From the IMG/VR virus record IMGVR_UViG_3300029133_000263: 64,000 nucleotides of DNA. One strand, given 5' to 3'. Shown one piece after another: positions 2,084 to 35,681 of the stretch. A program made the translations under genes and the position numbers. Below the pieces are notes generated by a model, which saw only the letters and a list, made by a program, of their open reading frames with translations, was not told where the DNA came from and did no database searches. Each line of letters begins with the position of its first letter. The stretch's first letter is position 1. This DNA comes from a virus.

Positions 2084-3490
2084 ATGGACAACTTTATGAA
2101 AAGCGCCGCCATTTTGGGCGCTTGCCTTTGCTGTCTGACTGCTTGTAAAGGAAACAGCGGAAACGGCAGCACAAATGCTACCAGTTCCACTGCACCGACC
2201 CCGTCCATTCAAAGCACGCCTGAACCGTCTTCGAATCCCGATATTGGCGGTGATGTGGATACATCGGGCGGCACCCAAATGAAGGATGGCGAAATCGTTC
2301 TGACCAAGTTGAATGTTAAGAGTCCAAACAATCTTGATTGCAACGGATACAAGGAAGTGAAAATGGGCGATGGCTCTCCTTTATATAAGGAGAAGGCTCA
2401 GGTAATTGAAAGCATGGGCTTGATTCCGTATACGGATGATAACGGAAACGGCCTTGAGATTTTCAGCGGCCATACCGTATATCTGCGTCCGAACCCGGAA
2501 TACATGGAGCCGGAAGAGACTCCCGTTCCTGACGATGAAGCCTCGGAAAGTGAGACTGTGGATGAGACGCAGATTTCCTCCGATGACTCTGCGTCAAGTG
2601 AAGAATCCGATGGCACGGTTTTGGGCGTTGATGAGAAGGATATCGTTTCGGAATCCGGACACTTTGATGCTGATGGGAACTATGTTGTCGATAGAGTGAG
2701 CACGACTGGATATGACGATTCGAACGGCTATAGCGTTGACGATGAATATTTGAAGTGCATTGTTTCCGGCGAGGAAGTCTATGAGCTTGACAAGGATTCG
2801 CTTGCCATCGATTATCCGACAGATTTCTCACAGCTTCGAAAAGAAGGTTCTTGCGAGCGGCTTTACATCTTCAATTCTCAGGAAGAATACGACCAGGCAA
2901 TCAAGAATCGAGAAGATGGTCAGGCTATCCTGAAAGGCGAAAAGACCGCTCCCACGAAATGCGTTATCTTGAACGGCTCTTTGGTTCCGGGCATGCACTT
3001 CTCCATCAACAGCGATGGCCGCCTGTGCGTTTCGGTTCGAGCATTGGCCGAGGCTTACGACAGCAATACGCAATATGCAGAGGACGCGGGTCTTCTCTAT
3101 GTGCCCATCACTTATGGGCATTGGGAATATGTGCCGTCCGCAAGAGCTTTGACCAAAGCAAGCGAGTATTTTGAAATCCACGGTGACAGGAAAACCTTCA
3201 AATATACGTCGCGCAATACATCGGATGCCTGGACCGATACGATGACGCTGGCCCAAGATAATACGTTCACAATGCCGATTGAAGACGTTTCGAGAATCTT
3301 TGGCTGGGAATTCTGGTACAACGATAATATTTTGAAGGTCGTCACGGATTCTCTTGACGATACAAACCCTAACAACTTTATCTTGCAGGAAGTGGATACG
3401 ACCGTTACAGAAGGAGAAGTTGAGGATTTGGATACTTCCGACAGCGAAGAAGAAACCGAAAACACTGACAGTGAGGTGGACAACCAGTGA
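2084..3490 (+). CDS. acidic Ser/Asp/Glu-rich surface lipoprotein
   Basis: signal peptide with lipobox LCCLTAC-KG; long low-complexity acidic regions; 4-nt overlap with the next gene. Confidence 0.65.
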   Translation: MDNFMKSAAILGACLCCLTACKGNSGNGSTNATSSTAPTPSIQSTPEPSSNPDIGGDVDTSGGTQMKDGEIVLTKLNVKSPNNLDCNGYKEVKMGDGSPLYKEKAQVIESMGLIPYTDDNGNGLEIFSGHTVYLRPNPEYMEPEETPVPDDEASESETVDETQISSDDSASSEESDGTVLGVDEKDIVSESGHFDADGNYVVDRVSTTGYDDSNGYSVDDEYLKCIVSGEEVYELDKDSLAIDYPTDFSQLRKEGSCERLYIFNSQEEYDQAIKNREDGQAILKGEKTAPTKCVILNGSLVPGMHFSINSDGRLCVSVRALAEAYDSNTQYAEDAGLLYVPITYGHWEYVPSARALTKASEYFEIHGDRKTFKYTSRNTSDAWTDTMTLAQDNTFTMPIEDVSRIFGWEFWYNDNILKVVTDSLDDTNPNNFILQEVDTTVTEGEVEDLDTSDSEEETENTDSEVDNQ

Positions 3491-7490: not shown

Positions 7491-8824
7491 GTAAAGAAGA
7501 GCAGAAGCCAAATATTTATCAAATCCCCAAAAACTCGTTTGATACCGGGTATGTGTTGAACGGACAATTCAAAACTCGAAACTTCGTTGAAGGTATCATC
7601 CTGGCACTACCGTTCTTGGGAATTTTCATTTATGGATGGCATGATTTGGGATGGGATGTACAAAGTACCGTGGCCTATTGCGCAATACTCTGTGCTGCTG
7701 CTTTCCTTGGTGCAGCTCACGGTGTTGGCGGCGATAGCTTGTTTGAGTTTATTCAACGTGTTATCCGTTTCCGGCAAAGTCGCAGAATCTCAAAATACAA
7801 TCCTCGTATCAAAACCGAACTTGAACCGGAATATCTGATTCATGACGGGCGGATGCTTCCGAAAGACAAGCTCAAGCAAATGCTTGGCACTGTAAAGGGA
7901 AAAGTCCTTGGTGAAGAGAACGGTCCTATCAGTTCCGATATTACAGATGAAGAGCTCAAGGTCTTCTACGATGATGACTATGGATTCCTGGAAAAACCGG
8001 ATGCCCTCAAATCTAAAGCAGAACTCCGTGCTGAAGCAAAACAGCGTGCGAAAGAAGAGAAGGAATACATTAACTCTTTGCCCCGTTCTGAACGCAAGGC
8101 TGCCAGAGAAGAAATCAAGCGTAAGCGTGAGCAGGAAGAGGCTGAGAAGAAGGCAAAAGAAGCAGAGCGCGAACGCATTATTAACGAAGCTATCAAGAAG
8201 CGTCTGGATAAAGCCGAGCGTGTTAAGACCGCACAGTATTACGAGAAGTTCATGGACCCCGACAATGAGCAGGAAAATAACAAGCCGGAAGAGAATAACG
8301 CTGAACTAAATCCTCAGGCTGTAGAGTTCAAGCCCGTCACTGTAGGGCCGAGCAATAATGCGGTTCAGGATGATGTCGATATCTTTGACAGTGAAGAAAG
8401 CATCGACACCGATGAAGTAGAAGCGAATGTGCAAGCAGATGCGGATACAGAGCTGTTTGAGGACGGCACTGATACCGATATCCAAGCCCCGCAGATTGAT
8501 GATGTAGTCTTTGACGATGAAACGGAAGTACTTGACGTCGATGAGGACTTGGATGACTTATCGGTTGATATCCAGGATACTCAGTCTGCACAGCCCGCAA
8601 AGCAGGGCAGGGGACAAGTCGTGAACAGCGATGACGATGTCAGCTTGGATGATGTAGACCTTTTCGATGACACCACGGTCAGCCGCACAGAGGAAAGACC
8701 TCAGAACGTCAAAACCTCTGGAAAGACGATGGGCTCGCAAAAGCAGCCGCAAACCACACAGAACAACAGCGATATTGATTATATGTCCTTGAATGACATT
8801 TCTATCTTTGATAGTGAGGAGTGA
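7487..8824 (+). CDS. PrgI/VirB3-like T4SS membrane protein with long coiled-coil and acidic C-terminal tail
   Basis: RBS AAAGGGGGAAG; two TM segments near the N-terminus; Lys/Glu coiled coil then Asp-rich tail; immediately precedes and overlaps the VirB4 gene. Confidence 0.55.
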   Translation: MSKEEQKPNIYQIPKNSFDTGYVLNGQFKTRNFVEGIILALPFLGIFIYGWHDLGWDVQSTVAYCAILCAAAFLGAAHGVGGDSLFEFIQRVIRFRQSRRISKYNPRIKTELEPEYLIHDGRMLPKDKLKQMLGTVKGKVLGEENGPISSDITDEELKVFYDDDYGFLEKPDALKSKAELRAEAKQRAKEEKEYINSLPRSERKAAREEIKRKREQEEAEKKAKEAERERIINEAIKKRLDKAERVKTAQYYEKFMDPDNEQENNKPEENNAELNPQAVEFKPVTVGPSNNAVQDDVDIFDSEESIDTDEVEANVQADADTELFEDGTDTDIQAPQIDDVVFDDETEVLDVDEDLDDLSVDIQDTQSAQPAKQGRGQVVNSDDDVSLDDVDLFDDTTVSRTEERPQNVKTSGKTMGSQKQPQTTQNNSDIDYMSLNDISIFDSEE

Positions 8825-8829
8825 AGCCT

Positions 8830-11490
8830 ATGTTTCGATTCAAAAATGGCGGAGAAATCCCCCACGGTGTTGTGGAACAGAGTATCGGTACAATCCCGCT
8901 GACGAAAAAGGAACGCGATGAAATCGCCAAAGAAGAGCGGCGGCGGATGAATCAAAAGCTGGAAGCTCAGAATGAGCGCTATCAAATCATTCGAAGCACA
9001 CAGCGTATCATCCCTATTGAGGATATTTACGGCGGCATTGTTGTGACAAAGGACCACCGATATATCAAAATCATGGAATTTCGCCCTATCAACTTTGCCT
9101 ATATGGACGCGGAAACTCAAAACCGTATTATTTCGCTTTTCTATCAAACGTTCAAAGCAACTCCCTGCAATATCCAGTTCAAAACCTTTTCTCGTAAAGC
9201 TGATGTCGAGAATTCAATCGCGACCGTGACGGACTATTACAAAGCAGAAAAGAATCCGAGTCGTAAGCGAATGTTGCAGGCATACATCGGATTGCTTCGT
9301 AAGACGGCTTTGTCCGTTGGTATTACCCGTCGCTTCTTTGTGGTCGTAGAATTCCAGCGCACTATCAGCAACGATGGTTCTAAATTTGAAATGGTTGTGG
9401 CCGACTTGAATGCCGTTGCGGCAAACGTCCGCTCTCACATGGAACAGTGTGGTAATATCTTTATTCCTGCACTTGGTAACCCTGACGGAAACGAGGACGC
9501 AGGTCTACACCAGCTTTTTTACCAGCTCTTGAACCGTAGAAAAAGCGAGACCATCACGTTCAAGCAGCACATGGACCCCATTGTTGACCGTTATTTTGAA
9601 GCCGAAAAGAATGGCGTTAAGACGTCTTTGCAGGCAACGGAACTGATTGCTCCGGACTGGATTGACTTTACGCATCACGATTACATTGTCATTGATGGCA
9701 AGTTTTATACTTTCGCTTACATTCCCTCGAACGGGTTCAGCCAGCGTGTCTACGCGGGCTGGGTGGCTACGTTCGTAAATGCTGGTGAAGGCATTGACGT
9801 CGATATGTTCTTTGAGCACATGTCCCGTGAAGCTGTCTTCAATAAAATCAGTACACAGCTTCGTCTGAGCCGTGCAAACGCCATGGACAGTCACGATACT
9901 GACTCTGACTATCAGGCGCGTATGGAAAAAATTTCGTCCAGTGAATATATGCTGCGCGGCCTTTCCAGCGGCGAAGAGTTCTATTACCTGTCAATGCTCA
10001 TCACTATCGTGGCAGATACAAAGAAGGAACTCGATTATAAGTTCGATGCTTTGAAAAAGCGTATCGAAGGTCAGAGCATGAAGATTCGCCGTGCGGATTT
10101 CATGATGGAAGAATGCTTCGATTCCTGCCTGCTTCCTCTTGCGAAAATCAATAAGGAGCTGGCAAAGAAATCTCATCGTAATCTTTTGACTTCGGGTGTT
10201 GCATCCTGCTATCCGTTCATCTCGTTTGAAATGCAGGACCCGGGCGGCGTTATGGTCGGTACAAACCATGTCAACAACTCTCTGGTCACCATCGATATGT
10301 TTGATACCCGCGCTCATGCAAACGCAAACGCCGTTATCCTGGGCTCCTCCGGTTACGGCAAGACTTTCACCGCACAGCTGTTCGCACTACGCTTGTCTGA
10401 AATGGACACGCAGGTGTTTATCATCTCTCCTCTGAAAGGTTTGGAGGACTACGGCGGCGGTTGTAAGGCAGTCAATGGTCAGTTCGTCTCCATGGACCCC
10501 TCTTCGGACAACAACATCAACATCATGGACATTCGCGCTCCTGACGATGAGGACGCAAAACTGCTGGATGATTATGAGGCTTCCGGCTCCTTCTTGACCA
10601 AAAAGATTCATACGATTCTTTCGTTCCTGCACCTGGTTGTTCGCAATATGACGCAGGAAGAAGAGCAGCTGATTGACGGCTGCCTGTATGCGACATACGC
10701 AAAGTTCGGCATCACCCGTGATAACAACTCTATCTACGATAAAGATGGCAACTATAAGGTGATGCCGCTGCTGGAAGATTTGCAGGAAGAAATGAGAAAA
10801 AACCCTGAACTGCATACCGTCTGCAACATCTTGAATCCGCTAATTAACGGTTCTATGGCTTGCTTCAATCACCACACCAACGTGGACCTTGACTCCAAGT
10901 ACATCGTATTTGACTTCAATGGTATGAAAGGCTCTTTGCTTACCATGTCTATGTTCGTGGTTCTGGACTTTGTCTGGACGAAAATCAAAGAGGACCGTAC
11001 ACAGCGCAAAGCCGTATTTATTGACGAATGCTGGAAATTGATTGGCACTGACTCCAACGAGCAGGCAGCTGAAGACGTTGTTGAAATCTTCCGTACGATT
11101 CGTGCTTATGGCGGTTCCGCTTTTGCTATGACTCAGGATATTTCTCAGTTCTACGAATACAAGGGCGGCAAATACGGCAAGGCAATTATTGGTAACGCCG
11201 ATACCAAAATCATCATGCACCTGATTCCGTCCGAAGCAAAAGCCCTTCAGGAAGCCATTCAGCTGACCAGCGTTGAGATGGAAGCGGTATCCAGCCTGCC
11301 GCGTGGTCAAGGTCTGGTTTGCTCTGCATCCGCAAAACTGTTCGTCGATTTTGTAGCCGATGACTATGAAGCCAAGGAAATCACAACCGATGCTAAGTCC
11401 TTCTACGAACGCCGCAAGGCTCTGGAAAAGAAAAAGCGGGAAGAAGAAGAGAAGGCGGCGGAAAATACCGTCATTGATGTTGAAATGTGA
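8830..11490 (+). CDS. VirB4/TrbE/CagE-family conjugal transfer ATPase
   Basis: GAGGAG RBS; Walker A AVILGSSGYGKTF; ~887 aa; Walker B-like VFIDECW; context. Confidence 0.85.
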   Translation: MFRFKNGGEIPHGVVEQSIGTIPLTKKERDEIAKEERRRMNQKLEAQNERYQIIRSTQRIIPIEDIYGGIVVTKDHRYIKIMEFRPINFAYMDAETQNRIISLFYQTFKATPCNIQFKTFSRKADVENSIATVTDYYKAEKNPSRKRMLQAYIGLLRKTALSVGITRRFFVVVEFQRTISNDGSKFEMVVADLNAVAANVRSHMEQCGNIFIPALGNPDGNEDAGLHQLFYQLLNRRKSETITFKQHMDPIVDRYFEAEKNGVKTSLQATELIAPDWIDFTHHDYIVIDGKFYTFAYIPSNGFSQRVYAGWVATFVNAGEGIDVDMFFEHMSREAVFNKISTQLRLSRANAMDSHDTDSDYQARMEKISSSEYMLRGLSSGEEFYYLSMLITIVADTKKELDYKFDALKKRIEGQSMKIRRADFMMEECFDSCLLPLAKINKELAKKSHRNLLTSGVASCYPFISFEMQDPGGVMVGTNHVNNSLVTIDMFDTRAHANANAVILGSSGYGKTFTAQLFALRLSEMDTQVFIISPLKGLEDYGGGCKAVNGQFVSMDPSSDNNINIMDIRAPDDEDAKLLDDYEASGSFLTKKIHTILSFLHLVVRNMTQEEEQLIDGCLYATYAKFGITRDNNSIYDKDGNYKVMPLLEDLQEEMRKNPELHTVCNILNPLINGSMACFNHHTNVDLDSKYIVFDFNGMKGSLLTMSMFVVLDFVWTKIKEDRTQRKAVFIDECWKLIGTDSNEQAAEDVVEIFRTIRAYGGSAFAMTQDISQFYEYKGGKYGKAIIGNADTKIIMHLIPSEAKALQEAIQLTSVEMEAVSSLPRGQGLVCSASAKLFVDFVADDYEAKEITTDAKSFYERRKALEKKKREEEEKAAENTVIDVEM

Positions 11491-11744
11491 TATTTGAAAC
11501 GTCAAAATAAGGCAAAGGAGCGCTGATTATTATAAAGAATGATACATTTTGAGTAAAGCTGTGAATGTACACGTTAAAATGTGTTCATTTTGCACTTTCA
11601 AAATGTGTCATTCTTTTTCTTTTATCCATAAAAAGGCACAATTCAATTTCACGTAAGCACAACGCTAATGCGTTTAATTTATGGTTCACAAACGGCAAAA
11701 GAACACATTGGTTCATTTTGCTAGAAATGAAAGGAGACATTTGT

Positions 11745-13252: not shown

Positions 13253-14530
13253 ATGACGAACGAACAAAAGCTTCTCGTATATCTCTATGGCGTTGATTCT
13301 ATCCAGCACAAGCAGCTTGCCATTGCTCTCTCTGACATCCCATATCAATGCGTTACCAAAGCTCTGAGAGCGGCCAAAAAGCATGGGTATGTTGAGGTCT
13401 TTATGAGAGATGAATCGCGGTATGTGCGTATCTCTCCGGACGGTCTGAAATACATTCGAAGCACTCAAAAAGACGCTCTGGATGTAGACAAGCGGGCGGC
13501 TATGAAGCGGCGAATCAAAGGCGAACAAGGACGGCTCACCAGGGTGGAAACGACACTCTGCATGTGCCGAGCAGCGGGAATTCAGCCTGCCAAGGAGGCT
13601 GGTATCAAGTTAATCGATGTGCTTGACCCCGAACAGGATGCGACCCAAACTTTCATGAATGACTTCTTCTATGACAAAGGACTTCTTTTCCTGTCCGATG
13701 AAATCTCTGCAACTATCAAGACGAGCACCACAATGGGCGAGGAGTACACGCTCGGTCAAAGCCGTCTGGTAGGTATCGTAATCAACCGCACAGGTATTTC
13801 TTTTCTCTACTGTACGCTCGATAAGCTGATGCGATGGGTTGTGTCTTACGAACAGCGGCGTGTAAGTGCAGTGATGGAACTCTTGAAATCCAGCTCACTT
13901 GCGGCAACGGACGAGGACTTCGCAACAATCTGCAATATGTCTCCTAAGTGCATCGTTATCGGCAAGACCTGCGCTATAGTTCCAAAAATCATTACTGGCG
14001 ATAAGTATGGCAAAGCAATCGACAGCACTGATATTATCAAAACCCATAACGCAACAAGGCTCTTGACGCTCACGAATCTCGAACAAGTCTACAAGTACAG
14101 CTATTTCGTTCCAACAAGTTCTATCGGCGTGGAACTTCTTGCTCGAACAGCAGCTTTAACACGAAACGAACTCAATGAAATGATTTCCGTGTGGCTGGAT
14201 GAGATGGTTGAAAGCCATACAACCGTTACTACTGGGCGATATGTTGAAGCATACATCAATGAACAGAAATGCAAAACCATAACGCTGCCGGTCATTGAGT
14301 TTGAAGAACTCGAATATCAAAAAAACGGACGAGTGCCTTATCATGTCGTTTGTGAGCGAGGAACGCAAGACGGTATCAGCCGGGCACTAGGAAGCAAAGT
14401 TCTCGATTTCAAGGATTTTGACAACATCCCAATGCCAGCACATAAATACGACGACGACGGAATTCGCCGCGATGGGATTAACCCATTGACGCATAATGGA
14501 TACAATGAAGAGGAGATGGATGACCAATGA
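13253..14530 (+). CDS. hypothetical protein with N-terminal winged-helix-like domain (possible replication/DNA-binding protein)
   Basis: N-terminal ~70 aa resemble a wHTH (LAIALSDIPYQCVTKALRAAKKHGYV); translationally coupled to the next ORF (ATGA). Confidence 0.5.
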   Translation: MTNEQKLLVYLYGVDSIQHKQLAIALSDIPYQCVTKALRAAKKHGYVEVFMRDESRYVRISPDGLKYIRSTQKDALDVDKRAAMKRRIKGEQGRLTRVETTLCMCRAAGIQPAKEAGIKLIDVLDPEQDATQTFMNDFFYDKGLLFLSDEISATIKTSTTMGEEYTLGQSRLVGIVINRTGISFLYCTLDKLMRWVVSYEQRRVSAVMELLKSSSLAATDEDFATICNMSPKCIVIGKTCAIVPKIITGDKYGKAIDSTDIIKTHNATRLLTLTNLEQVYKYSYFVPTSSIGVELLARTAALTRNELNEMISVWLDEMVESHTTVTTGRYVEAYINEQKCKTITLPVIEFEELEYQKNGRVPYHVVCERGTQDGISRALGSKVLDFKDFDNIPMPAHKYDDDGIRRDGINPLTHNGYNEEEMDDQ

Positions 14531-23876: not shown

Positions 23877-23971
23877 ACCTAAAGCCTCCATCATTTTTTG
23901 GTTGTAAAAATTATACCACAAACAGTGTCAAGCAGACGAAGTGATTTTGCAACGAAAGGAGAAGAAACAAG

Positions 23972-24502
23972 GTGAATAGCAAATACCGAGAGCAAACCTG
24001 CTGCTTTGTTGGGCACAAGGATATCCCACCGGGCGAGCAGCTCAAAATATTGGCCAGGGTGGAACACCGGCTTATTCCACTTATCCAGCAGGGAGTCACT
24101 TACTTTGGTATCGGCGGTTCTTTAGGTTTTGATACTCTTATGGCGGATATGCTGGTTTCGTTGAAAGCAGCACATCCCCGAATTCGCGTTATTGAGGTTT
24201 TGCCTTTTGAGGGATACCGTTCTAAATGGAGCTTAGAACAGCAGCGGCATGCCGAGAAAATAGACAAGCAGGTAGACAAAATAGTATATGCTGCGAAAGA
24301 ACCAGGCAGGGGAGTATACCTTCTAAGAGACCGACATCTAGTCGATTACTCTGCTTATTGTATCTCCTATTGCACAAGGACTACCGGCGGCACGGCATAT
24401 ACGGTGAAATACGCTCTGGAACACGGCATAACGGTGTACAACGCCTCCAGTTTCGATGTGAGCGCCTTGCTTCAGGCCCGACCGCTTGCGAAGAACGGAT
24501 GA
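23972..24502 (+). CDS. DUF1273/YpsA-like SLOG-family protein
   Basis: N-terminal CFVGHKDIP motif and overall SLOG-like pattern; GTG start with AAAGGAGA RBS. Confidence 0.55.
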   Translation: MNSKYREQTCCFVGHKDIPPGEQLKILARVEHRLIPLIQQGVTYFGIGGSLGFDTLMADMLVSLKAAHPRIRVIEVLPFEGYRSKWSLEQQRHAEKIDKQVDKIVYAAKEPGRGVYLLRDRHLVDYSAYCISYCTRTTGGTAYTVKYALEHGITVYNASSFDVSALLQARPLAKNG

Positions 24503-24745
24503 AAAAGCGCCCTTGCACAAAACATGAGGGAGATTTCCGGGCGTTTGGAGAAATACCCATAGGACTTTGAGCTTTGCTGCACAAAAACAAGCCTCCGCTC
24601 TTTGGCGGGGGCTCTTCTTGTATTCTCAAAAACGTTGAATTTAATTTCACTGAATTCCGATTCAGCATTATTTGGCGTGGCTCAGCTTGGCCCGACAGCA
24701 CGATACCATGGCGGCCGAACACAATGATTCTCCAGAACGGAATTC

Positions 24746-24773
24746 TCGACATTCGGTGCGAATCGTATATAAT
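24746..24773 (+). promoter_or_regulatory. family promoter (TCGACA-N16-TATAAT, spacer TTCGGTGCGAATCGTA)
   Basis: read directly. Confidence 0.55.
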
Positions 24774-24846
24774 CTAAATAATAAAACAGTATAGGAATAT
24801 AGCTAAGCCGCCAAGCGAGTGAAATCGTTTGGTGGCTTTTCTTTTT
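24774..24846 (+). ncRNA. short promoter-proximal transcript ending in an intrinsic terminator (AGCCGCCAA..TTGGTGGCT + T-run)
   Basis: no ORF; promoter + hairpin + T-run. Confidence 0.4.
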
Positions 24847-24869
24847 GCTACGGAAAAGTAGACATTGTA

Positions 24870-24950
24870 CTTGTCATGAGCTTGTTGCATACTTGCTACG
24901 AACTTGCTAAAAACTTGCTAAGCACTTGCTACGCTTCACCTCGAAGCAAG
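24870..24950 (+). repeat. six tandem 11-bp iterons CTTG(T/C)(T/C)A.... plus one inverted copy (GCAAGTT at 24944-24950)
   Basis: cttgtcatgag / cttgttgcata / cttgctacgaa / cttgctaaaaa / cttgctaagca / cttgctacgct. Confidence 0.7.
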
Positions 24951-25452
24951 TTCATTTTTTTTGCGCGAAAGAATATCGGATAAGTGACGCTTCTTACTCG
25001 TATGACCGAGAGAAAACATGCAAAGACTCTACCATTCTGGTAGGGCTTTTTTGCTGCCCAAAAAGTTGGAAAAATGTCGCAAGCGAGCCGCTGAAACCTC
25101 GGAATTTTGTCGCAGCCTTTCCGAATATGAGATGTATCTCACAAAAGCGAAATGCGCTGCTTCGTATCTGTGGTGAGACAATCGGAACAGGCAAATAGCA
25201 AAATCTCAGCTGCCGCAAATGCTGTCAAGTTCAAATCACAACTCCCAAAAGTTTCGTTTGGGAAAGCCTGCATTAAAAGTTTCGTTCTGGAAAATGCAGA
25301 GGGGAAAGGAAAATGTCGAAGCATATATGCACTGATTTTCTTCTTGCTATTTGTGCAATCCGCTCAAATTGGCGATAAATATTCCCAAAATAAATAAGTC
25401 AAAGTGCTTTTGGTGTATAATGGCTCTGACAAACAGAAAAAAGGAGAACACT

Positions 25453-26535
25453 ATGAAAAAGGTTGTATCATTAGCACTTTCGACTTTGCTCGTCCTCTCG
25501 TTGGCTGCCTGCGGCAAGGCGAATAGTTCCGCTGCAACAGCCGCAAGTGAATCCAAGTCAAGTGCTTCGTCAAATAGCACTTCCAATAGCACGCAAGATT
25601 ACAGCCCTGACGGGATTAAAGTAGGAGAGACATATACTACAGAAGACGGCAAAACATATGAAAGGGTGTGGAACGGCACAGGCAGCGATTTACCTACGCC
25701 GTCCCCCGAACCCAAAATTACATACGATAATGATTTCCAGGCACAGACACTTGTTGATAATGAAGAATGCACCATTATCTTGCAGAGCGTAGGCTACGAT
25801 GATGATTACGGCTATTATTGGAAGCTTTACTTCAAGAATAAGACATCAGATAAAAAACTCGGTTACTCGTTTGGCGACTGCACATTGAATGGCGTGGGTG
25901 CGAGCCTTTGGCTTACGAGTGTTGAACCTGGTCAAGAGGAAACGGAGATTCATCATTGGGAAAGTTCCGGGCTTAAAATTTATAACATCAATCCGCAGGA
26001 TATCAATACGGTAAGTTTTTATCTCGATGTCTATAACGAATTAGATTATGATGTTATCCCACGGCATGACTTTGTTGATGACGATTTCGTGGTTTATCCA
26101 AAAGGGGAAGAAAACGCAACCGAGCCAAAGCATGAAACCCAACCCACAGACCTCGTACTGGCCGACAATGACGCTTGCACTCTGATGATTTGTGGATTTG
26201 ACCCCGATGGCCTGCACGGTTATACGACCAAAGCTTACATAGAAAACAAGACGGATAAAGAAATCATGTTTGCCTTTAGAAGCGGAGGCTCTATAAACGG
26301 TTTTGAGTGCTTCCCTGAAACAGATACAATGGGAATTGATGCGCACACTAATGCCTATGTAGACATCTACTATTACGATTATTTAGATACTTATGAGGCC
26401 AACGGTAAAGACCCCACCTCTGTCACCGAAATGGTGATGCCAATCGTTATAAACAATTCCAGCACTCGGGACATCTATGTAGATGAGACTTTCACTATTA
26501 ACCCTCAGACAAATTCCGTGACAACATCGGAATAA
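25453..26535 (+). CDS. lipoprotein with two tandem copies of a ~130-aa domain
   Basis: signal peptide + lipobox LAAC; internal repeat (…NDACT.MICGFD…GF.C.PE…NAY.DI.). Confidence 0.6.
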   Translation: MKKVVSLALSTLLVLSLAACGKANSSAATAASESKSSASSNSTSNSTQDYSPDGIKVGETYTTEDGKTYERVWNGTGSDLPTPSPEPKITYDNDFQAQTLVDNEECTIILQSVGYDDDYGYYWKLYFKNKTSDKKLGYSFGDCTLNGVGASLWLTSVEPGQEETEIHHWESSGLKIYNINPQDINTVSFYLDVYNELDYDVIPRHDFVDDDFVVYPKGEENATEPKHETQPTDLVLADNDACTLMICGFDPDGLHGYTTKAYIENKTDKEIMFAFRSGGSINGFECFPETDTMGIDAHTNAYVDIYYYDYLDTYEANGKDPTSVTEMVMPIVINNSSTRDIYVDETFTINPQTNSVTTSE

Positions 26536-26749
26536 TTTGACGCCCTCCTGCGATTAAAATTATTAACTTTCCCGGGCTTCGTTTGCAACTTTGTAAATAA
26601 AGGTTTCGTTCTGGAAAACACGGTGGAAAATTGACACCTCCCACGATTGAAATCGTGGGATTCCTGGGCGGCGCGGCAAGGTTCATCGCCAAATCGTGTC
26701 TGAAACAGCGAGTTATGCGGTTTCCCATCATACGCTACGGGTGTAGCGC

Positions 26750-28926: not shown

Positions 28927-30324
28927 TTACAACTTTAACTGCCCCACACAACTCTGCGCAGTGGGCAGTAGTTTGTGGGCCATCTCGTTGCGGAAATACT
29001 TAGGGTCTACGGCTCGCATCCCGAACCGCACACGGTCTAAAGCATCTGCGTCTTTCAGAATCGTATACAGCAGCCACACCCGTTCTTTGTCCCGGATATT
29101 GGATGCTTTGAGGTCTGCAAGAGCTTTGCGGTCGTCTAAGCAATGATATTTGATGAGGAAAGCAGTTGCCGAATTGCAGTCGGAGTCTGCGTCATAATAA
29201 ATGTCCCTGGACTTTGCTCCGTGACTGTCATCGACATCATCATTCGTCCGCCCAATATCATGATAAAGAATCGCATCACATAGCTGGTGGGATTCTTTTT
29301 TTGTTAAGGCAATGCCCTGAACCTGGACAAGGAGCAGAGCATCAAAGAGAACCCGCAGCGTGTGCTCGGCATTGTGCTCCTCGTCATCAATCCGGCCATA
29401 ATCATCGTACAGTGCGGAGATACGGCTCCGGTAGCGCTGGTAGAGAGGGTAGAACGCCTGAATTTCATCTGTCAGAGCGTTAATGCCGTATAGTGTATCG
29501 ACCTTTCTATCTTTTACAGCAGCCGGTGGGACAAGGACCTCTTTTTCTTCATCATTCGGAAAATACTCGATGATGTCACATTTGCTGACATGGGCAGTGA
29601 TGATTCTGCTGTTCTCGAGACTCGGGATGCGGCAGGCAAAGAAACAGGCTGCCTTGTAGCTTGTGGTCCAGGAGAAAGATTTCTCGTATGGAGTTGACTT
29701 ACTCCCTTCCCCACGATAGATGGTCACAATATCCGGCAGGCTGGATAGCTTCTTTTCAGTGTCCTGCTTTTGCTTCTGAGACTTTCCAGAAAAGACTTTC
29801 TGAAGGTTATCCTCTTTGAGAGCCGAGAACCCAAAATCACTGGTACGATAGAAGTCCAGAAAAAGTGCGTATAGATTCTCACCCGGACTGGACAACTCAA
29901 TGTACCTGGAAAGAACAGACACACGAAGGCTGTTTTCCAGGGAAAAGAGGTAGCTGCGAATGAAGGGGGCGTTTCCCGATGAGATTTTCTCGGCCATATC
30001 CAGAACTCTCTGCTGAAACTTTTCGTCCGATTCGCCGTTCACAGCCAGACGCTTGTCCCCGTAAATGTTCAGAGAAAGAACAATGGGAACGGTCGTGCTA
30101 TCGAGCTCGCAATAATAAAGAGGAGCAAGCATATTGTGCGCAGCATAAATCTTGTCGACGGGGAGTCTCGGATACTTTTTAGCGAATTCAGTGGCCGTTA
30201 TACCGATGCTGTAGCCTTCTTTGTAGTACCGTTCAATGTCAGCACTTGTCTGCACTGCAGTGAGGGGTAGCATCGTCTCGAGACTTGCTTGGTTGATGCT
30301 TACAAGAATATCCCCGACCGTCAT
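28927..30324 (-). CDS. HD-domain phosphohydrolase-fold protein with unknown N-terminal domain
   Basis: C-terminal H..L..LYHDIGR...D motifs (HD); GGGAGGAG RBS; TATAAT upstream. Confidence 0.6.
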   Translation of the reverse strand: MTVGDILVSINQASLETMLPLTAVQTSADIERYYKEGYSIGITATEFAKKYPRLPVDKIYAAHNMLAPLYYCELDSTTVPIVLSLNIYGDKRLAVNGESDEKFQQRVLDMAEKISSGNAPFIRSYLFSLENSLRVSVLSRYIELSSPGENLYALFLDFYRTSDFGFSALKEDNLQKVFSGKSQKQKQDTEKKLSSLPDIVTIYRGEGSKSTPYEKSFSWTTSYKAACFFACRIPSLENSRIITAHVSKCDIIEYFPNDEEKEVLVPPAAVKDRKVDTLYGINALTDEIQAFYPLYQRYRSRISALYDDYGRIDDEEHNAEHTLRVLFDALLLVQVQGIALTKKESHQLCDAILYHDIGRTNDDVDDSHGAKSRDIYYDADSDCNSATAFLIKYHCLDDRKALADLKASNIRDKERVWLLYTILKDADALDRVRFGMRAVDPKYFRNEMAHKLLPTAQSCVGQLKL

Positions 30325-30810: not shown

Positions 30811-31198
30811 TAAAGACAGAGCGATTGTGAGATGGGGCGATACCGATGCAGTAGGAATGAGAATCTTAGCAGCTAAAAGAGTCAACAACCCCGCCTAAAC
30901 CGGTTCGCCGGTTATAGACGGGGCTTGCGGGGCAACCTGTAAGCCCAGTTGATTAGCCTAAGCCCATTGCTCCGGCAGTGGGGAAAACTACGTTGTGTAC
31001 TAATAATATAGGCACCTTATCCATGCTCCACAAGTGGTGAGCTCTGCAGGCGTTTCGTTAAACATCTCCGAGGGGAGGAGAAGTGCGAGCGTCATGTCGA
31101 AAGGCTAAAACAGTGCATAACATTGGCGAAGTGGACCACAGGACGCAAGTCCTGACTTATAGTTTTATTACTATTTTACGAATGGAGAAACAAAAATT

Positions 31199-32842
31199 AT
31201 GGTATATGTGATTGCGATTGTGGCAGCCCTGATTATTCTCTTTGGATTTCTCTGCTACAAGAAAGCTCCGCCCACGGAGGCTATCGTTGTGACCGGCTTT
31301 GGTCTGTCTAAGCCTAAAGTAGTTTGCGGAAAAGGTACATTTGTTCTGCCCGTTCTTCAGCGGGCTGACCGGCTAAATATGCGCCTTCTGAAAATTGACG
31401 TCAAAACTCCTGAAACAGGTGTTAAGACGAAGAACGGCGTAAGTCTCTGGATTGACTCTGTTGTCACGATTCAAGTCTACAGCGAAAACTCTACCGTTCT
31501 GGATGAAGAAGTGAAGGCATCCGGTCTGAAAGACGCCAAGGCGTACATCATGTCCCGCCAACAGGCAGCCATCTCGAACTTTCTGGGCATGAACGAGCAG
31601 GGCATCAATGAGAAAGTTAATGACGTTCTGCAGGGCAATTTGCGTGAGATTGTCTCTGACATGACCGTCGACCAAATTCTGACGAACCGCAAGCAGATGG
31701 CTGTGAGCGTTATCGAGAATGCTCGCCCCGACCTTGCTAAGATGGGACTTGAGGTCGTGACTTTTAACGTCCAGGATATCAGGGATGCGGTGGATGTTCA
31801 GGGCCACAACCACGGCGTCATTGAGGCTATCGGCATTGAACAGGAAGAGCTTGTGAAAAAACAGGCTGAAATTGCCCGTGCTCAGGCTGCCCGTGATGTA
31901 GCCTGCGCGAAGGCCGATGCTGAGATGGCTGCAAATGCCAAGGAAGTTGAAGCGCAGACTGCGATTGCAAAACGCAACAATGAATTGCAGCTCGCCAAGG
32001 CAAAGCTGAAAGCTGAAGCTGATAAAGCTGCGGCTGACGCAGATGCTGCCGGTCAGATTCAGATGAATCTCCGCGCCAAAGAAATCAAAGAAGCGGAAGC
32101 GGATGCTGAAATCGCCAAGCAGAAGAAAATGGTAGACCTTGCCGCACAGGAAGCCGAGGTCCAGCAACGCAAACTGGATGCGGAAGTCCGCAAACAGGCA
32201 GATGCTGACCTGTACCGCCGCCAGAAAGAGGCAGAAGCCAAGAAATATGAGGCGGAACGTGCAGCTGAGGCACAGAAGTTCTCCAAGCAGCAGGAAGCAG
32301 AAGGCATTGAACTTGTCGGTAAGGCAGAAGCTGAAGCGATTCGTCAGAAAGGCTTGGCTGAAGCGGAAGCCATGAAACAGAAAGCAGAGGCATATAAGCA
32401 GTATAACGATGCGGCTGTGGCTGAAATGCTCATCAAGGTTCTTCCTGACATTGCCAAAAGCGTGGCTCAGCCTTTGTCCAGCATTGATAAGGTTTCTATC
32501 ATTGGCGGTGACGCCTCCGGCGTATCCGGCGTTTCCGGGAACGTTCCTATCCTGATGGCTCAAACCATGCAGACGGTGAAAGAAGCGACCGGAATCGACA
32601 TGGGCGAAATTGTCCGTGCCAACAGCATCCAGGCAAAGACCGACCGCAACATCAACATCATGAATCAAGGCGAACAGCCTGTGAATAGTGAAAAGGAAGG
32701 AGGTGTCAATGCTATGGAACGCGTAGAAGGCGGCTATCTAATTCATGAGAAGCGTCTCAACGGTGAGGAAGTCACTCATTTTCGACCGGATGTGACCGAA
32801 GAAGAGAAGGCTATCATGAAAGACAAAAAGGCCAAAGATTAA
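31199..32842 (+). CDS. SPFH/band-7 flotillin-like membrane protein with long Ala/Glu/Lys coiled coil
   Basis: N-terminal TM, SPFH-like region, long heptad-rich AEAKAEA segment; 547 aa. Confidence 0.75.
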   Translation: MVYVIAIVAALIILFGFLCYKKAPPTEAIVVTGFGLSKPKVVCGKGTFVLPVLQRADRLNMRLLKIDVKTPETGVKTKNGVSLWIDSVVTIQVYSENSTVLDEEVKASGLKDAKAYIMSRQQAAISNFLGMNEQGINEKVNDVLQGNLREIVSDMTVDQILTNRKQMAVSVIENARPDLAKMGLEVVTFNVQDIRDAVDVQGHNHGVIEAIGIEQEELVKKQAEIARAQAARDVACAKADAEMAANAKEVEAQTAIAKRNNELQLAKAKLKAEADKAAADADAAGQIQMNLRAKEIKEAEADAEIAKQKKMVDLAAQEAEVQQRKLDAEVRKQADADLYRRQKEAEAKKYEAERAAEAQKFSKQQEAEGIELVGKAEAEAIRQKGLAEAEAMKQKAEAYKQYNDAAVAEMLIKVLPDIAKSVAQPLSSIDKVSIIGGDASGVSGVSGNVPILMAQTMQTVKEATGIDMGEIVRANSIQAKTDRNINIMNQGEQPVNSEKEGGVNAMERVEGGYLIHEKRLNGEEVTHFRPDVTEEEKAIMKDKKAKD

Positions 32843-33867: not shown

Positions 33868-35562
33868 GTGACAAAAAAGAACATTTTCCCTGTGGTTGCA
33901 ACCATTGCTGTGGTAGGCGTTGTTCTCGGAGTATTTTCGATGACGGTGATGAGGGACTCAAACGTCAGCATTAGTACAATGACGTCCGAGCAGGCATATG
34001 CCAACTTGAGCAGCAAGATGAAGCGCATCGGCGTGCAGGAGGTCAAGGTCAATCCTCAGCAGCTGGATGTCTCTGAATTCCTTGATGCAAAGGATGAACT
34101 GCCCGACATTGAATCCTCCTACCCATTCGTGGTCGTAGGAAACGGAGATGTGAACATCGAAATCTTTTCCTCTGGCGAGAAAGCAGCAGAGTCCGGCTCA
34201 GATTCTTTCCTGACCGAAATGGCAAAGAAGTTCAACGCCCAGCACAACAAGACTTCCGGAGACAAGACTATGAGTGTCTCCCTGCGCTCCATTCCGTCCG
34301 GTACGGCGGCTGAGTACATCTCGACGGGAAAGTATCAGCCCGAGTGCTATACCCCCTCAAATACGCTCTTTGGCGAGCTGGTGAAGAACGAGGGCGTAGA
34401 ATTGACCGTTGAGGCTGACCGTCTGGTCGGCAATGTGGCGGGTATTCTCGTATCAAAGAAGACAGGGGATATGCTTCGCTCTGAATACGGTGAAGCGTCT
34501 GTTTCTTCCGTTCTGAACGCAACCATCGATGGCAAACTCATGATGGGATACTCGAACCCCTACACAAGTGCTACGGGTCTTAATTTTCTGCTTGAGGCTC
34601 TTGCGAGCAGCGGCAGCGATACGATTGTCGATACGGCTGCTGTTGAGAATTTCCAGAAATTTCAAGCGAACGTCCCTCTCGTATCCTTCACGACCCAGCA
34701 GATGGTCCAGTCGGCAGACAAGGGCATCGTGGACGGCGTTGTCATGGAGTATCAGTCTTATCAGAATGACCCGACCTTACAGCGCAACTACGAGTTCATC
34801 CCGTTCGGTGTACGGCACGATAATCCTCTGTATTCCATCGGGAATGTCTCTGCGGAGAAGAAGGAAGTTATTGCTGCCTTCGTTTCCTTCTGCGCTCAGA
34901 ACCAGGCAGAGGCGACCAAGGACGGATTCAATGGTCTTGACGACTATGCTTATACAGGCAAGGCATACGATGGCAACACCATCGCACAGGCTCAGAGTGT
35001 CTGGAAAGAAGAGAAGGACTCAGGCATTCCTATTGTGGCAGAGTTCGTTGTCGATACTTCCGGCTCGATGCGCGGCGAACCCCTGAATGCCCTGAAAACC
35101 GCGATGATAAACACCATCCAGTATATCAATGACGACAACTATATCGGCATCATTGGCTTTGATTCAGATGTCAGGGAATACCTGCCCATTAACCAGTTCT
35201 CTCTGACCCAGAAAACTCTGTATAAGGGTGCCGTGAACTCCCTCGATGCGAACGGCAGCACCGCAATGTACAACGGTCTTTGCGTTGCTATGGACCGCAT
35301 CTACCAGAAATCTCAGGAACTGGGTGGGAATTGCACGCCCATCATCTTTGTGCTCACGGACGGTGACAACAATACCGGATATGGCTTCTCCGATACGAAG
35401 AACATCATTGCCGGTATGGATATCCCTATCTATACCATCAGCTACAACTACGCAGCGGATAGTCTTTCGGAGCTCGCTTCCATCAACGAAGCGGCAGCTA
35501 TCGTCGGCAACAGCGAGGATATCACCTACAAGCTCCGCAACCTGTTTAACGCAGAGATGTAA
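33868..35562 (+). CDS. membrane-anchored von Willebrand factor A (vWA) domain protein
   Basis: GTG start with AAAGGAGA RBS; N-terminal TM; C-terminal MIDAS motif DTSGSM...NGSTAM...TDGDNNTGY. Confidence 0.7.
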   Translation: MTKKNIFPVVATIAVVGVVLGVFSMTVMRDSNVSISTMTSEQAYANLSSKMKRIGVQEVKVNPQQLDVSEFLDAKDELPDIESSYPFVVVGNGDVNIEIFSSGEKAAESGSDSFLTEMAKKFNAQHNKTSGDKTMSVSLRSIPSGTAAEYISTGKYQPECYTPSNTLFGELVKNEGVELTVEADRLVGNVAGILVSKKTGDMLRSEYGEASVSSVLNATIDGKLMMGYSNPYTSATGLNFLLEALASSGSDTIVDTAAVENFQKFQANVPLVSFTTQQMVQSADKGIVDGVVMEYQSYQNDPTLQRNYEFIPFGVRHDNPLYSIGNVSAEKKEVIAAFVSFCAQNQAEATKDGFNGLDDYAYTGKAYDGNTIAQAQSVWKEEKDSGIPIVAEFVVDTSGSMRGEPLNALKTAMINTIQYINDDNYIGIIGFDSDVREYLPINQFSLTQKTLYKGAVNSLDANGSTAMYNGLCVAMDRIYQKSQELGGNCTPIIFVLTDGDNNTGYGFSDTKNIIAGMDIPIYTISYNYAADSLSELASINEAAAIVGNSEDITYKLRNLFNAEM

Positions 35563-35681
35563 CTCAAAAGCGCGGTTTTGTCCGCGCAGCTGCTCCAAAA
35601 GACAGCCTCCACGCGGCGAGCAGCGGGCAACGGGAGACAGTCCCGGCAAATTGTCTTTGAGACGGAAGGAAGAAGTGCCCT

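Follow-up and report, generated by a model that had tools for sequence, protein, structure and literature searches.

What does a short, regularly spaced repeat array do on a large mobile element? The question is raised by the stretch of DNA analysed here (64,000 nt of IMG/VR virus record IMGVR_UViG_3300029133_000263; hereafter "the window"), which carries such an array near 24.9 kb. A sequence-only reading had proposed a plasmid replication origin next to a small RNA, and had named a centromere-like site and an origin of transfer (oriT) among the alternatives. Its view of the element as a plasmid holds up, on grounds other than the array: in contig size, source, GC and gene content it agrees with the 'Hodor'-type conjugative megaplasmids of human gut bacteria, roughly 350 kb in size (PMC12934698).

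Both lineages of the family compared below share a conserved T4SS-linked block (VirD4, VirB4, a 425-aa protein, DUF6557 and Metallophos), and at its distal end is an extensive non-coding gap that holds the array. Among the genes near the array are a Y-family polymerase, an orphan-like methylase and cassettes for defence or anti-defence; it also adjoins a hotspot where cassettes are gained and lost. The lipoprotein beside it is identical in 65 blocks of the assembly collection. BLAST of positions 23900–26600 against PLSDB plasmids and GenBank phages returned no match, and a pattern scan of GTDB genomes recovered only unrelated perfect tandem repeats, the family itself being absent from the species representatives. 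The available flanks of distant relatives (41–55% identity) and of a Vescimonas plasmid held no array.

Architecture of the repeat module

The core of the array consists of four exact copies of ACTTGCTA at 24891, 24902, 24913 and 24924, in strict 11-bp spacing, and no other exact copy occurs in the whole 64-kb window outside 24891–24931. Tandem Repeats Finder (TRF) reported the same interval with a period of 11, 3.7 copies and a score of 61. The two-unit pattern CTTGCTANNNNCTTGCTA, allowing up to two mismatches, matched four times against 0.40 expected, and none of 100 shuffles reached four. TRF, exact matching and the shuffle test thus bear out the earlier description of a helically phased direct-repeat array in non-coding DNA, in which the 3-bp spacers put all 8-bp boxes on one helix face. 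The count of six 11-bp units at 24870–24935 needs qualification. In register with the ACTTGCTA box, CTTGTCATGAG matches at 6/8 positions and CTTGTTGCATA at 5/8; these decayed units differ among sister loci (e.g., CTTATCA, CTTTTTG) and are absent from the main array of the other lineage. The array is accordingly four perfect plus two degenerate units, not six equal ones.

The inverted copy noted earlier is also real. TCGAAGCAAGT, at 24941–24951, is 91% complementary to ACTTGCTACGA, lies about two helix turns from the last direct box and closes the array. The resulting 11-6-11 palindrome, whose arms match at 9/11 positions, occurs once in the window against 0.05 expected. Upstream, the AAAAGTAGACATT box has no second exact copy in the window, and its two-mismatch matches at 11697, 11729 and 50230 are within chance expectation; downstream, the GCGCGAAAGAAT flank has one exact copy and a one-mismatch match at 38596. 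The module comprises at least three different conserved motifs, namely the AAAAGTAGACATT box, the ACTTGCTA boxes and the T-tract with GCGYGAAAGAAT (Table 1).

Table 1. Features of the array region, numbered from the first letter of the window.
Feature	Position	Strand	Basis or remark
Sigma-70-type promoter, TCGACA-16-TATAAT	24746..24773	+	Scan score 11/12
Deletion junction, TAAA microhomology	24782..24785	.	Junctions of the window, L004, L006 and L013 compared
Strong intrinsic terminator, 14-pair stem and T-run	24805..24848 (hairpin 24805–24838)	+	
AAAAGTAGACATT box, one copy	24854..24866	+	Conserved between two lineages
Two decayed repeat units, CTTGTCATGAG (24870) and CTTGTTGCATA (24881)	24870..24890	+	Read from sequence
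Four perfect ACTTGCTA boxes, array core, 3-bp variable spacers, 11-bp period	24891..24934	+	Exact match, TRF
Imperfect palindrome 11-6-11, ACTTGCTACGC / TTCACC / TCGAAGCAAGT, last box and inverted box	24924..24951	.	
T8 tract and GCGCGAAAGAAT, conserved 3' flank of the module	24955..24974	+	
Non-coding tail to the lipoprotein gene	24975..25452	.	No conserved ORF

The 'promoter-sRNA unit' seen immediately upstream had a different history. Promoter and hairpin exist, both picked up by the scan, yet in loci L004 and L006 the promoter is followed by an RBS, an ATG, an operon, and then a stop codon and the hairpin 24805–24838. BLAST placed an insert of 6.3 kb (L004) or 7.4 kb (L006) at the junction, and in these two loci the operon was confirmed to be complete, filling the 6.3–7.4 kb from promoter to hairpin. 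The operon (Metallophos / Eco57I-like methylase / ResIII+T5orf172) is defence-like, and its 3' end, the ResIII/T5orf172 stop codon, lies directly before the hairpin in 29 of 47 sister loci. In the window, loss of this 6–7 kb defence-like operon has fused the promoter to the terminator. The terminator has a folding energy of −23.2 kcal/mol, and the substitutions in its arms differ between sub-lineages. This promoter-terminator pair is a scar left by a deletion and has no relation to the array; no annotation is warranted for the neighbouring 'sRNA'.

The non-coding tail beyond the module holds a small terminator-like hairpin (25027–25045), short repeats and, near 25410, the lipoprotein promoter TTGGTGTATAAT. 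It had been described as some 450 bp of AT-richer sequence without a credible ORF. The second part stands, whereas the AT bias is mild, with 41.6% GC at 24952–25400 against 46.8% in the window (9th percentile of 450-bp windows). No gene was called between the YpsA-like and lipoprotein genes in any of 10 sister contigs. Small ORFs in 24950–25450 were considered and rejected, since gene finders never call them and their frames are broken by the 14-nt and 29-nt indels that relatives carry in the tail. The divergence of the tail is mosaic among sister loci, and it is unalignable to the other lineage. Neither a promoter scan nor reading by eye found a promoter beside the array for it to regulate.

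Conservation between two lineages

The array is real and conserved. For each of seven IMG/VR contigs of the element (72–389 kb), the scan returned it at a single place. Family diversity is low, with essentially two lineages. Between these diverged lineages a 75-bp core (boxes, inverted box, T-tract and GCGYGAAAGAAT) is 87% identical, the flanking genes share 64–73% nucleotide identity, and the non-coding DNA flanking the core can no longer be aligned. All 24 box positions are identical between the lineages but only six of nine spacer positions, i.e., differences fall on 3/9 spacer and 0/24 box positions (Fisher p ∼0.015), in a sample biased by scan patterns that demanded perfect boxes. The third unit, which no search pattern demanded, is invariant in all sister loci. 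On the 3' side, T6–8 plus GCGYGAAAGAAT is kept in both lineages and similarity stops directly after it. The orientation of the array relative to the co-directional backbone genes is also the same in both, despite different neighbour genes.

Other aspects of the module vary. Box copy number is three to four (four in the window, three in L006 and L055, three to four in the other lineage), two boxes of sister locus L061 follow each other at 13 bp, and the interval within the palindrome is shorter by one base in the other lineage, where AAAAGTAGACATT occurs in three copies at 21-bp spacing adjoining the array (L003). The near-identity of the first 345 nt in L006 resembles a recombination tract.

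The constraint appears to act on DNA rather than on RNA, because the hairpin is weak, inner pairs are lost without compensation and no fold stands out. As an RNA hairpin the palindrome reaches −8.6 kcal/mol in the window and −6.2 kcal/mol in L055 and the other lineage, and its inner C-G pairs are lost in L055 with no compensating change. Neither ssDNA nor RNA folds stood out against shuffles (z-scores −0.7 to −2.4), an Rfam search gave only sub-threshold chance hits, and alignment folding found almost no covariation. An RNA element or a single-strand origin was rejected on these fold scores, the lack of an Rfam match and the scant covariation.

Less likely readings: replication, recombination or no function

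Rep_3-type iteron origins, such as those of the lactococcal pCI305-type theta replicons, carry phased direct repeats in non-coding DNA. The array resembles them in having such repeats, and the other lineage adds its three 21-bp repeats; it differs in having no adjacent rep, AT-rich unwinding element or DnaA box, and in a unit that is shorter. As a vegetative replication origin, the interpretation first offered, the array is not supported, for want of a Rep or Par gene, a DnaA box and a GC-skew extremum and in view of the short 11-bp unit. It is also very unlikely, in our estimation, that the array is a secondary origin or copy-control (handcuffing) cluster for the plasmid's Rep_3 initiator. 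Helical phasing, the T-tract that follows the array, the long non-coding gap and the AAAAGTAGACATT repeats of the other lineage, whose 21-bp size is typical of Rep_3 iterons, are all compatible with that idea. However, the interval from about −43 to +39 kb contains neither a Rep nor a Par gene, and no Rep, Par or recombinase Pfam hit was obtained in the window ORFs or ∼18 kb further upstream (likewise none for NCBIfam Rep models). A search of the non-coding gap for DnaA boxes with at most one mismatch found none. The AT bias is only mild, there is no GC-skew extremum at 24.9 kb, and the 11-bp unit with its 8-bp core is shorter than Rep_3-type units (∼17–22 bp). The skew analysis suggested earlier as a check, applied to the 64-kb window, showed the cumulative curve rising through the site from a minimum at the window start to a maximum at the window end.

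Hodor plasmids are reported to carry Rep_3 beside a separate non-coding region of >2 kb (PMC12934698). No other ACTTGCTA cluster, with a period of 11 bp or of 17–25 bp, was found among the seven element contigs, so the Rep_3 origin does not use this box. The 425-aa protein encoded at 13253–14530, a winged-helix candidate for Rep in the sequence-only reading, was rejected in that role. It has no family or PDB hit, and synteny makes it a T4SS-cluster protein that always follows VirB4 and two small genes, in relatives down to 41–55% identity.

The palindrome might instead be the crossover core of a tyrosine recombinase, with the boxes as accessory elements, in a site for site-specific recombination such as multimer resolution. 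We consider this quite improbable, also in the variant in which a heterobivalent integrase would use the boxes as its arm-type sites. The internal resolution site of Tn4430 combines an IR1-IR2 core with DR1-DR2 accessory motifs for the tyrosine recombinase TnpI, and the module is similar in using the same motif for direct accessory copies and for an inverted pair (11-6-11, a possible core). It differs from Tn4430 in having no nearby recombinase, in the contiguity of its direct copies at 11 bp and in that no recombination junction was seen at the palindrome. In outline the palindrome fits the geometry of core sites, these generally being inverted repeats of 10–14 bp with a 6–8-bp spacer (PMC5587640); the palindrome is unique in the window, and the cassette hotspot lies next to the array. 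At one locus (L161), a tyrosine integrase gene is preceded at ∼110 bp by similar ACTTGCTA(CG) boxes; judged by eye, the N-terminus of this integrase looks like an arm-binding domain of the Tn916/lambda type. This is a single case, however, and no homologous integrase was found near other arrays. Nor does the window hold an integrase, resolvase or recombinase gene, and the examined element sequences contain no second palindrome copy and no Xer/pdif-like modules. Rearrangement and deletion breakpoints fall 60–140 bp away, outside the spacer, which itself is one base shorter in the other lineage, and contiguous 11-bp boxes leave little space for recombinase monomers.

The array could also lack a dedicated function and be a slippage-prone 11-bp minisatellite by a weak back-up terminator, retained through chance or because plasmids recombined recently; this we hold to be unlikely. 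The variable copy number (3–4), the 13-bp spacing at one locus and the tract-like stretch of L006 would fit such an origin. So would the T-run after the palindrome, on the strand of the upstream genes. Perfect tandem repeats of ACTTGCTA also turn up, unrelated to this array, in many genomes and phages, in one phage family within a coding region, so the box itself is not special. Against this, boxes, spacing, inverted box and 3' flank are kept while other intergenic DNA is unalignable, and substitutions avoid the boxes. A strong terminator already exists 85 bp upstream of the palindrome, whose own hairpin is weak and separated from the T-run by a 3-nt gap. The palindrome does not qualify as an intrinsic terminator: two terminators nearby fold at −17.6 and −23.2 kcal/mol, the palindrome at −8.6 kcal/mol (in L055 and the other lineage, −6.2).

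Leading readings: a proposed protein-docking site or a possible oriT

The two remaining alternatives of the sequence-only reading, a centromere-like site and an oriT, are now the two leading readings. We tentatively favor, with a probability of roughly 0.38, a docking site for a small DNA-binding protein of the ParR/StbA type that serves partition or transfer control. Such a protein would be of the centromere-binding or plasmid-regulator kind, either ribbon-helix-helix (ParR-like) or HTH (StbA-like). Its dimers may bind adjacent boxes cooperatively and form a one-sided filament or solenoid, and the resulting complex could ensure positioning and segregation of the plasmid, or else regulate DNA transfer or nearby genes.

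Two kinds of established system have this geometry. R1 ParR needs two 11-bp repeats, and ParR_B of Clostridium perfringens recognizes a pair of 8-bp repeats with 3 bp between them (PMC9426499). Like the parC sites (the ten 11-bp iterons of R1; parC_B of pJIR4165), the array has an 11-bp period, made up of an 8-bp core and a 3-bp spacer, in several contiguous copies in non-coding DNA, and its plasmid, from a host of the Clostridia type, is also reported to encode ParM (PMC9426499; PMC12934698). It differs in that R1 parC has two sets of five repeats and the array is one cluster, with extra motifs (AAAAGTAGACATT, T-tract plus GCGYGAAAGAAT) and a closing inverted box. Moreover, parC sites normally lie directly upstream of parM and overlap its promoter (PMC9426499), whereas the array has no par gene within tens of kb. 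The second system, StbA of R388, recognizes boxes of 9 bp set 2 bp apart, which form arrays of 2, 3, 5 or 10 and in some cases occupy leading-region promoters far from stbA (bioRxiv 10.1101/2022.04.29.490116), and it has a dual role in segregation and conjugation control (bioRxiv 10.1101/2022.04.29.490116; PMC3098194). The R388 sites (stbDR; stbS next to oriT) share the 11-bp period, and their scattering through the maintenance and leading region, away from stbA, parallels an array that likewise has no adjacent binder gene. However, StbA arrays sit in promoters and none was found at this array; R388 carries several arrays where only one was found per plasmid contig here, and no StbA homologue was identified.

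That ParA, ParB and ParM are reported for the Hodor class (PMC12934698) speaks for docking. Hits to ParA, ParM, ParR or ParB were found neither in the window nor in the flanks of the other lineage, and no par, rep or small DNA-binding gene lies next to the array in either lineage. No protein common to unrelated ACTTGCTA-array loci emerged as a candidate binder. Those loci are heterogeneous (some intergenic in phages; in one phage family inside a DnaA-C-like coding region), and recurrence of the box elsewhere is taken to be mostly chance. The 13-bp spacing in L061 counts against docking, as do the low diversity of the family and the make-up of the module: a plain centromere less typically holds at least three different motifs than does an oriT, an oriV or a recombination site.

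An oriT core, the main rival, is possible, though we think it doubtful. The direct repeats would then bind a relaxosome accessory protein, the palindrome would be the recognition hairpin of the relaxase, and the nick site would lie within the T-tract plus GCGYGAAAGAAT, a few bases 3' of the palindrome. Transfer would proceed rightwards on the + strand, so that the T4SS cluster to the left enters last. The oriT of the enterococcal plasmids pAD1 and pAM373, as reportedly described by Francia and Clewell in 2002, has a large inverted repeat beside short direct repeats that set specificity. The likeness lies in an inverted repeat that adjoins helically phased short direct repeats on a Gram-positive conjugative plasmid; the difference is one of size and context, the pAD1/pAM373 inverted repeat being ∼140 bp with the relaxase gene close, and the palindrome here 28 bp with none adjacent.

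The layout itself speaks for transfer. Repeats, inverted repeat and, ∼4 nt later, a conserved flank after which lineage similarity ends follow the classical order, and oriTs commonly combine inverted and direct repeats (PMC5587640). Several different motifs in one module, its conserved orientation, its position in the extensive non-coding gap where the T4SS-linked block has its distal end and its neighbours, which are typical of leading regions (Y-family polymerase, orphan-like methylase, defence/anti-defence genes), fit as well. The published Hodor oriT is moreover a guess from context only (PMC12934698), which in the second lineage appears to abut a TnpB gene. Against an oriT stand the lack of an adjacent relaxase or accessory gene, a short and weak palindrome stem, a region that is not strongly AT-rich and a conserved 3' flank that matches no known nick consensus. 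A RecD2-like helicase is encoded ∼33 kb upstream of the array. The HD-domain gene 28927–30324 fits the published 'MOBH-like relaxase'. It lies 4 kb from the array in the window; in the other lineage the distance exceeds 10 kb, no array being present within 10 kb of its ortholog on either side.

Two candidates were rejected. ATAAGTGACGC at 24980 resembles a MOBQ nick motif but differs from one sister locus to another and is missing from the other lineage. The HD-domain protein was discarded as an adjacent relaxase, there being no TIGR03760 or PDB sequence match and no linkage to the array in the other lineage.

More generally, the module may be the true cis DNA-handling site of Hodor plasmids, either the real oriT, missed by the published prediction from context, or a distant centromere; this too is possible rather than probable. 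Such a DNA-handling module would begin with the AAAAGTAGACATT box, include the ACTTGCTA array and the palindrome, and end with the T-tract plus GCGYGAAAGAAT. A distant centromere would work tens of kb from the partition genes.

The main practical gain of the analysis is negative, in that the array is not to be annotated as a replication origin. Hodor-type megaplasmids are widespread in human gut metagenomes, and their oriT and centromere are known only as gene-context guesses. A short, unique and conserved cis element is the most concrete experimental handle on them yet, and the array may serve as bait for its binding protein, as a candidate test fragment and as a marker for tracking these plasmids.

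Anatomy and conservation of the array

The box ACTTGCTA occurs as four exact copies in a non-coding gap and nowhere else in the 64-kb window. A two-unit pattern allowing up to two mismatches matched four times against 0.40 expected, with none of 100 shuffled sequences scoring as high, and Tandem Repeats Finder returned a period of 11, 3.7 copies and a score of 61. The repeats thus lie where the sequence-only reading had placed them; of its six consecutive 11-bp units four are perfect boxes, while the two left-hand units match the box at only 6/8 and 5/8 positions and so are decayed copies. Its inverted copy was also recovered, as TCGAAGCAAGT, whose complementarity to a direct unit is 91% and which forms with the last of these an imperfect 11-6-11 palindrome, the sole such arrangement within the window (0.05 expected). 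A T8 tract and then GCGCGAAAGAAT lie 3' of the palindrome. The DNA beyond is non-coding, as had been proposed, but its AT richness is mild (GC 41.6% vs. 46.8% window-wide, the 9th percentile of 450-bp windows). Two blocks of this tail, which vary little, are kept even in L055, the most diverged sister locus; one conserved block carries (A/T)TGTCGCA twice, 33 bp apart, and another a candidate CTCAC...GTGAG hairpin.

Positions of features in the window, with the parts of the conserved module
Feature	Position	Strand	Remarks
M23 peptidase	307-2031		Gram-positive-type T4SS
VirD4	3487-5655		Gram-positive-type T4SS
VirB4-like ATPase	8821-11490		Gram-positive-type T4SS
425-aa protein	13253-14530	+	
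Upstream cassette hotspot	24600-24785		L004 2594-8935; L006 236-7674; also L013
TAAA microhomology	24782-24785		
Terminator hairpin	24805-24838		
Module: AAAAGTAGACATT box			1 copy in window; 3 at 21-bp spacing in L003
Left-hand units	24870, 24881 (starts)		
Module: ACTTGCTA boxes	24891, 24902, 24913, 24924 (starts)		3 or 4, spacing 11 bp
Module: inverted box	24941-24951		
Module: T6-8 tract, then GCGYGAAAGAAT			
Conserved tail blocks	25060-25115, 25130-25175		
HD-domain protein, 465 aa	28927-30324	-	ortholog in second lineage 58% identical (L134 region 9007-11404)
HEARO (IscB omega-RNA)	30881-31141	+	Rfam 91.2 bits, above gathering score
Band_7/flotillin gene	31199-32842		
VWA-domain gene	33868-35562		
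HDV-like ribozyme	35589-35658	+	Rfam 60.4 bits vs. gathering score 44

Collection scans returned at least ~47 near-identical window-type copies and at least eight from a second lineage, represented by locus L003. Homologous genes of the two lineages share 64-73% nucleotide identity, and their intergenic DNA is unalignable except for a module of ~115 bp. The 75-bp core of this module is 87% identical, with substitutions at 0/24 box positions and 3/9 spacer positions. Unit number varies (three in L006 and L055, four in L039 of the second lineage), one interval between boxes is 13 bp in L061, and substitutions accumulate in the decayed units. Array neighbors also differ: in the window the array comes after the Y-polymerase and YpsA genes, and in L003 it comes before the gene for the Y-polymerase. 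Both lineages nevertheless share one orientation of the array with respect to their co-directional backbone genes. Each contig of the element carries one array site among the matches listed, and L003 (6230-6273 and 6078-6135) has a second, decayed 11-bp array ~175 bp upstream of the main one with its own inverted AGCAAGT, the two being separated by three 21-bp AAAAGTAGACATT repeats in a non-coding gap of 1.7 kb in total. The anatomy, conservation and uniqueness of the array are direct observations.

The palindrome folds weakly (−8.6 kcal/mol in the window, −6.2 in L055 and the second lineage) compared with two neighboring terminators (−17.6 and −23.2 kcal/mol), and 3 nt separate its stem from the T-run. 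Both inner C-G pairs have been lost in L055 by CpG transitions, without compensation. Folding of either strand as RNA or ssDNA gave z-scores of −0.7 to −2.4, and alignment folding yielded almost no covariation. Constraint therefore acts on box sequence and spacing, a pattern that points to protein binding to duplex DNA. A functionless minisatellite plus a weak terminator is an improbable reading of the site.

The promoter-terminator pair upstream

At loci L004 and L006 the promoter seen in the window (TCGACR-16-TATAAT) is followed by the RBS and ATG of a metallophosphatase gene and by a 6.3-7.4 kb operon, which includes an Eco57I-like methylase, a 1098-aa ResIII+T5orf172 protein and, in L006, an additional HipA-like gene, and whose stop codon lies ~20 nt upstream of the hairpin. 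The window lacks all DNA between promoter and terminator, the break falling across a TAAA microhomology. The operon 3' end precedes the hairpin in 29/47 sister loci and the scar is found in 18/47, a proportion biased by the recovery of 10 of the 18 scar loci via a window-identical protein. The hairpin, which folds at −23.2 kcal/mol, is a true, strong terminator; its arms carry substitutions between sub-lineages. An Rfam search for a small RNA at the promoter-hairpin unit gave sub-threshold noise only. What had been taken for a promoter-sRNA unit is, on comparison of the loci, a deletion scar, and nothing suggests a selected small RNA.

Directly upstream of the array lies a hotspot at which cassettes are gained and lost. 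Its variants are a 6.3-kb operon in L004 (metallophosphatase, 331-aa protein, Eco57I-like methylase, ResIII+T5orf172), a 7.4-kb version with the HipA-like gene in L006, a 264-bp remnant in L013, and the clean deletion in the window.

The element and its replication and transfer genes

In addition to its T4SS, the window encodes a Y-family polymerase, a YpsA/SLOG protein, zinc-ribbon proteins, helicases, and restriction and defense genes. The assembly collection has 65 blocks that encode an identical copy of the lipoprotein whose gene adjoins the array, on contigs of up to 260 kb and with one human gut metagenome sample among the sources; in IMG/VR the array lies on seven contigs of 72-389 kb among the matches listed. 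The nearest PLSDB plasmids are those of Subdoligranulum and Vescimonas (Oscillospiraceae), with a VirB4 identity of ~38%. The element resembles the "Hodor" conjugative megaplasmids of the human gut in size, source, former filing as "huge phages," TnpB insertions and a T4SS without canonical relaxase, and the second lineage's HD-domain gene has the upstream layout described for that class (PMC12934698). Pooled GC is 47.1% for window-type loci and lower for the second lineage; Hodor values are 47.1% in group G1 and 44.6% in G2 (PMC12934698). We consider the element very likely a Hodor megaplasmid (PMC12934698), graded so because the hallmark Rep_3, Par and sortase genes sit outside the window.

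Upstream of the HD-domain ortholog in L134 are a 153-aa ORF, a 294-bp spacer and a divergent TnpB gene. The published "G2 OriT," predicted from context only, spans 268-381 bp with a hypothetical CDS between oriT and HD nuclease (PMC12934698); the L134 layout fits this description, and the predicted oriT may therefore abut an IS605-family end. No IscB ORF follows the HEARO match in the window, where the next gene is Band_7/flotillin; in L027, L029 and L031 a TnpB (OrfB_IS605) gene occupies this gap between the HD-domain and Band_7 genes, and an IscB-like (RRXRR/HNH) gene is present elsewhere on the element. The HDV-like ribozyme, of the Rfam family originally found in F. prausnitzii, lies 27 nt past the VWA-domain gene's stop codon.

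Rep, Par and recombinase families had no match among ORFs scanned across the window or in ~18 kb further upstream, which encodes a RecD2-like helicase, a T4SS pilin, a 1772-aa protein, YqaJ and DUF2325. The non-coding gap contains no DnaA box, and cumulative GC skew across the window climbs straight through the array site. In view of these results the array is not the vegetative origin, and the sequence-only reading's headline of an origin beside an sRNA fails. The 425-aa protein, its candidate initiator, has no family or structure match; relatives at 41-55% identity always directly follow VirB4 and two small genes, and the order VirD4 ... VirB4, DUF5697-like gene, ~265-aa gene, 425-aa protein, 90-aa gene is kept down to 41% identity. 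It is part of the transfer apparatus. Some of the relatives come from far smaller contigs, and in one case RepL and Mob_Pre genes lie close by. Use of the array as secondary replication iterons is very unlikely: on the seven element contigs, the matches listed include neither box clusters spaced 17-25 bp apart nor a further cluster with an 11-bp period, and iterons beside Rep_3, if any, therefore use a box other than ACTTGCTA.

Candidate roles of the array

The box and spacer geometry is that of plasmid centromere-binding proteins and regulators, and from this we tentatively infer, at a probability of roughly 0.38, that the array is a docking site for a protein of this type. Such proteins would dock on the 8-bp boxes separated by 3-bp spacers, all on one helix face, and the bound protein would assemble as a cooperative one-sided filament. 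ParR_B of C. perfringens likewise binds two 8-bp repeats 3 bp apart, and R1 ParR requires two repeats of 11 bp, equal to the period here (PMC9426499). StbA of R388 recognizes 9-bp boxes separated by 2-bp spacers, two to ten per array, and some of these arrays are situated in leading-region promoters distant from the stbA gene (bioRxiv 10.1101/2022.04.29.490116); StbA couples segregation to conjugation control (bioRxiv 10.1101/2022.04.29.490116; PMC3098194). Counting against a docking site, we found neither a par or regulator gene adjoining the array nor a promoter that it could control, and the module holds three different conserved motifs.

The strongest rival, though rather unlikely, is that array, palindrome and flank form an oriT core. 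Repeats, palindrome and a conserved flank starting a few bases on follow the textbook order, similarity between lineages ends directly after that flank, and the site occupies the distal end of the T4SS-linked block, amid leading-region-like genes. T4SS genes usually enter the recipient last, as they would after a + strand nick just 3' of the palindrome. However, no relaxase or accessory gene was found adjoining the array, the HD-domain gene fitting the published putative relaxase is 4 kb away in the window and >10 kb in the other lineage, and the site has no known nick motif.

A tyrosine-recombinase site with accessory repeats is quite improbable, and no integrase homologous to that of locus L161 was found near any other array. 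L161 (IMG/VR contig 3300045988_186543) carries at 900-1060 four to five irregularly spaced ACTTGCTA(CG)-type boxes, ~110 bp upstream of the gene for a tyrosine integrase. Judged by eye, the N-terminus of this integrase resembles a Tn916/lambda-type arm-binding domain; in this single case the boxes look like arm-type sites. Unrelated phages and genomes have the box as well, but their contexts are inconsistent and no neighboring protein is common to them; we read this recurrence, L161 included, as mostly coincidence that speaks neither for nor against any model.

Helically phased arrays of protein-binding boxes are a well-known kind of plasmid feature, and the present instance is undescribed: the word "iteron" is absent from the Hodor paper, and its two uses of "repeat" are not tied to this site (PMC12934698). 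For experiments on this prevalent and poorly understood gut megaplasmid, the array offers a useful handle.
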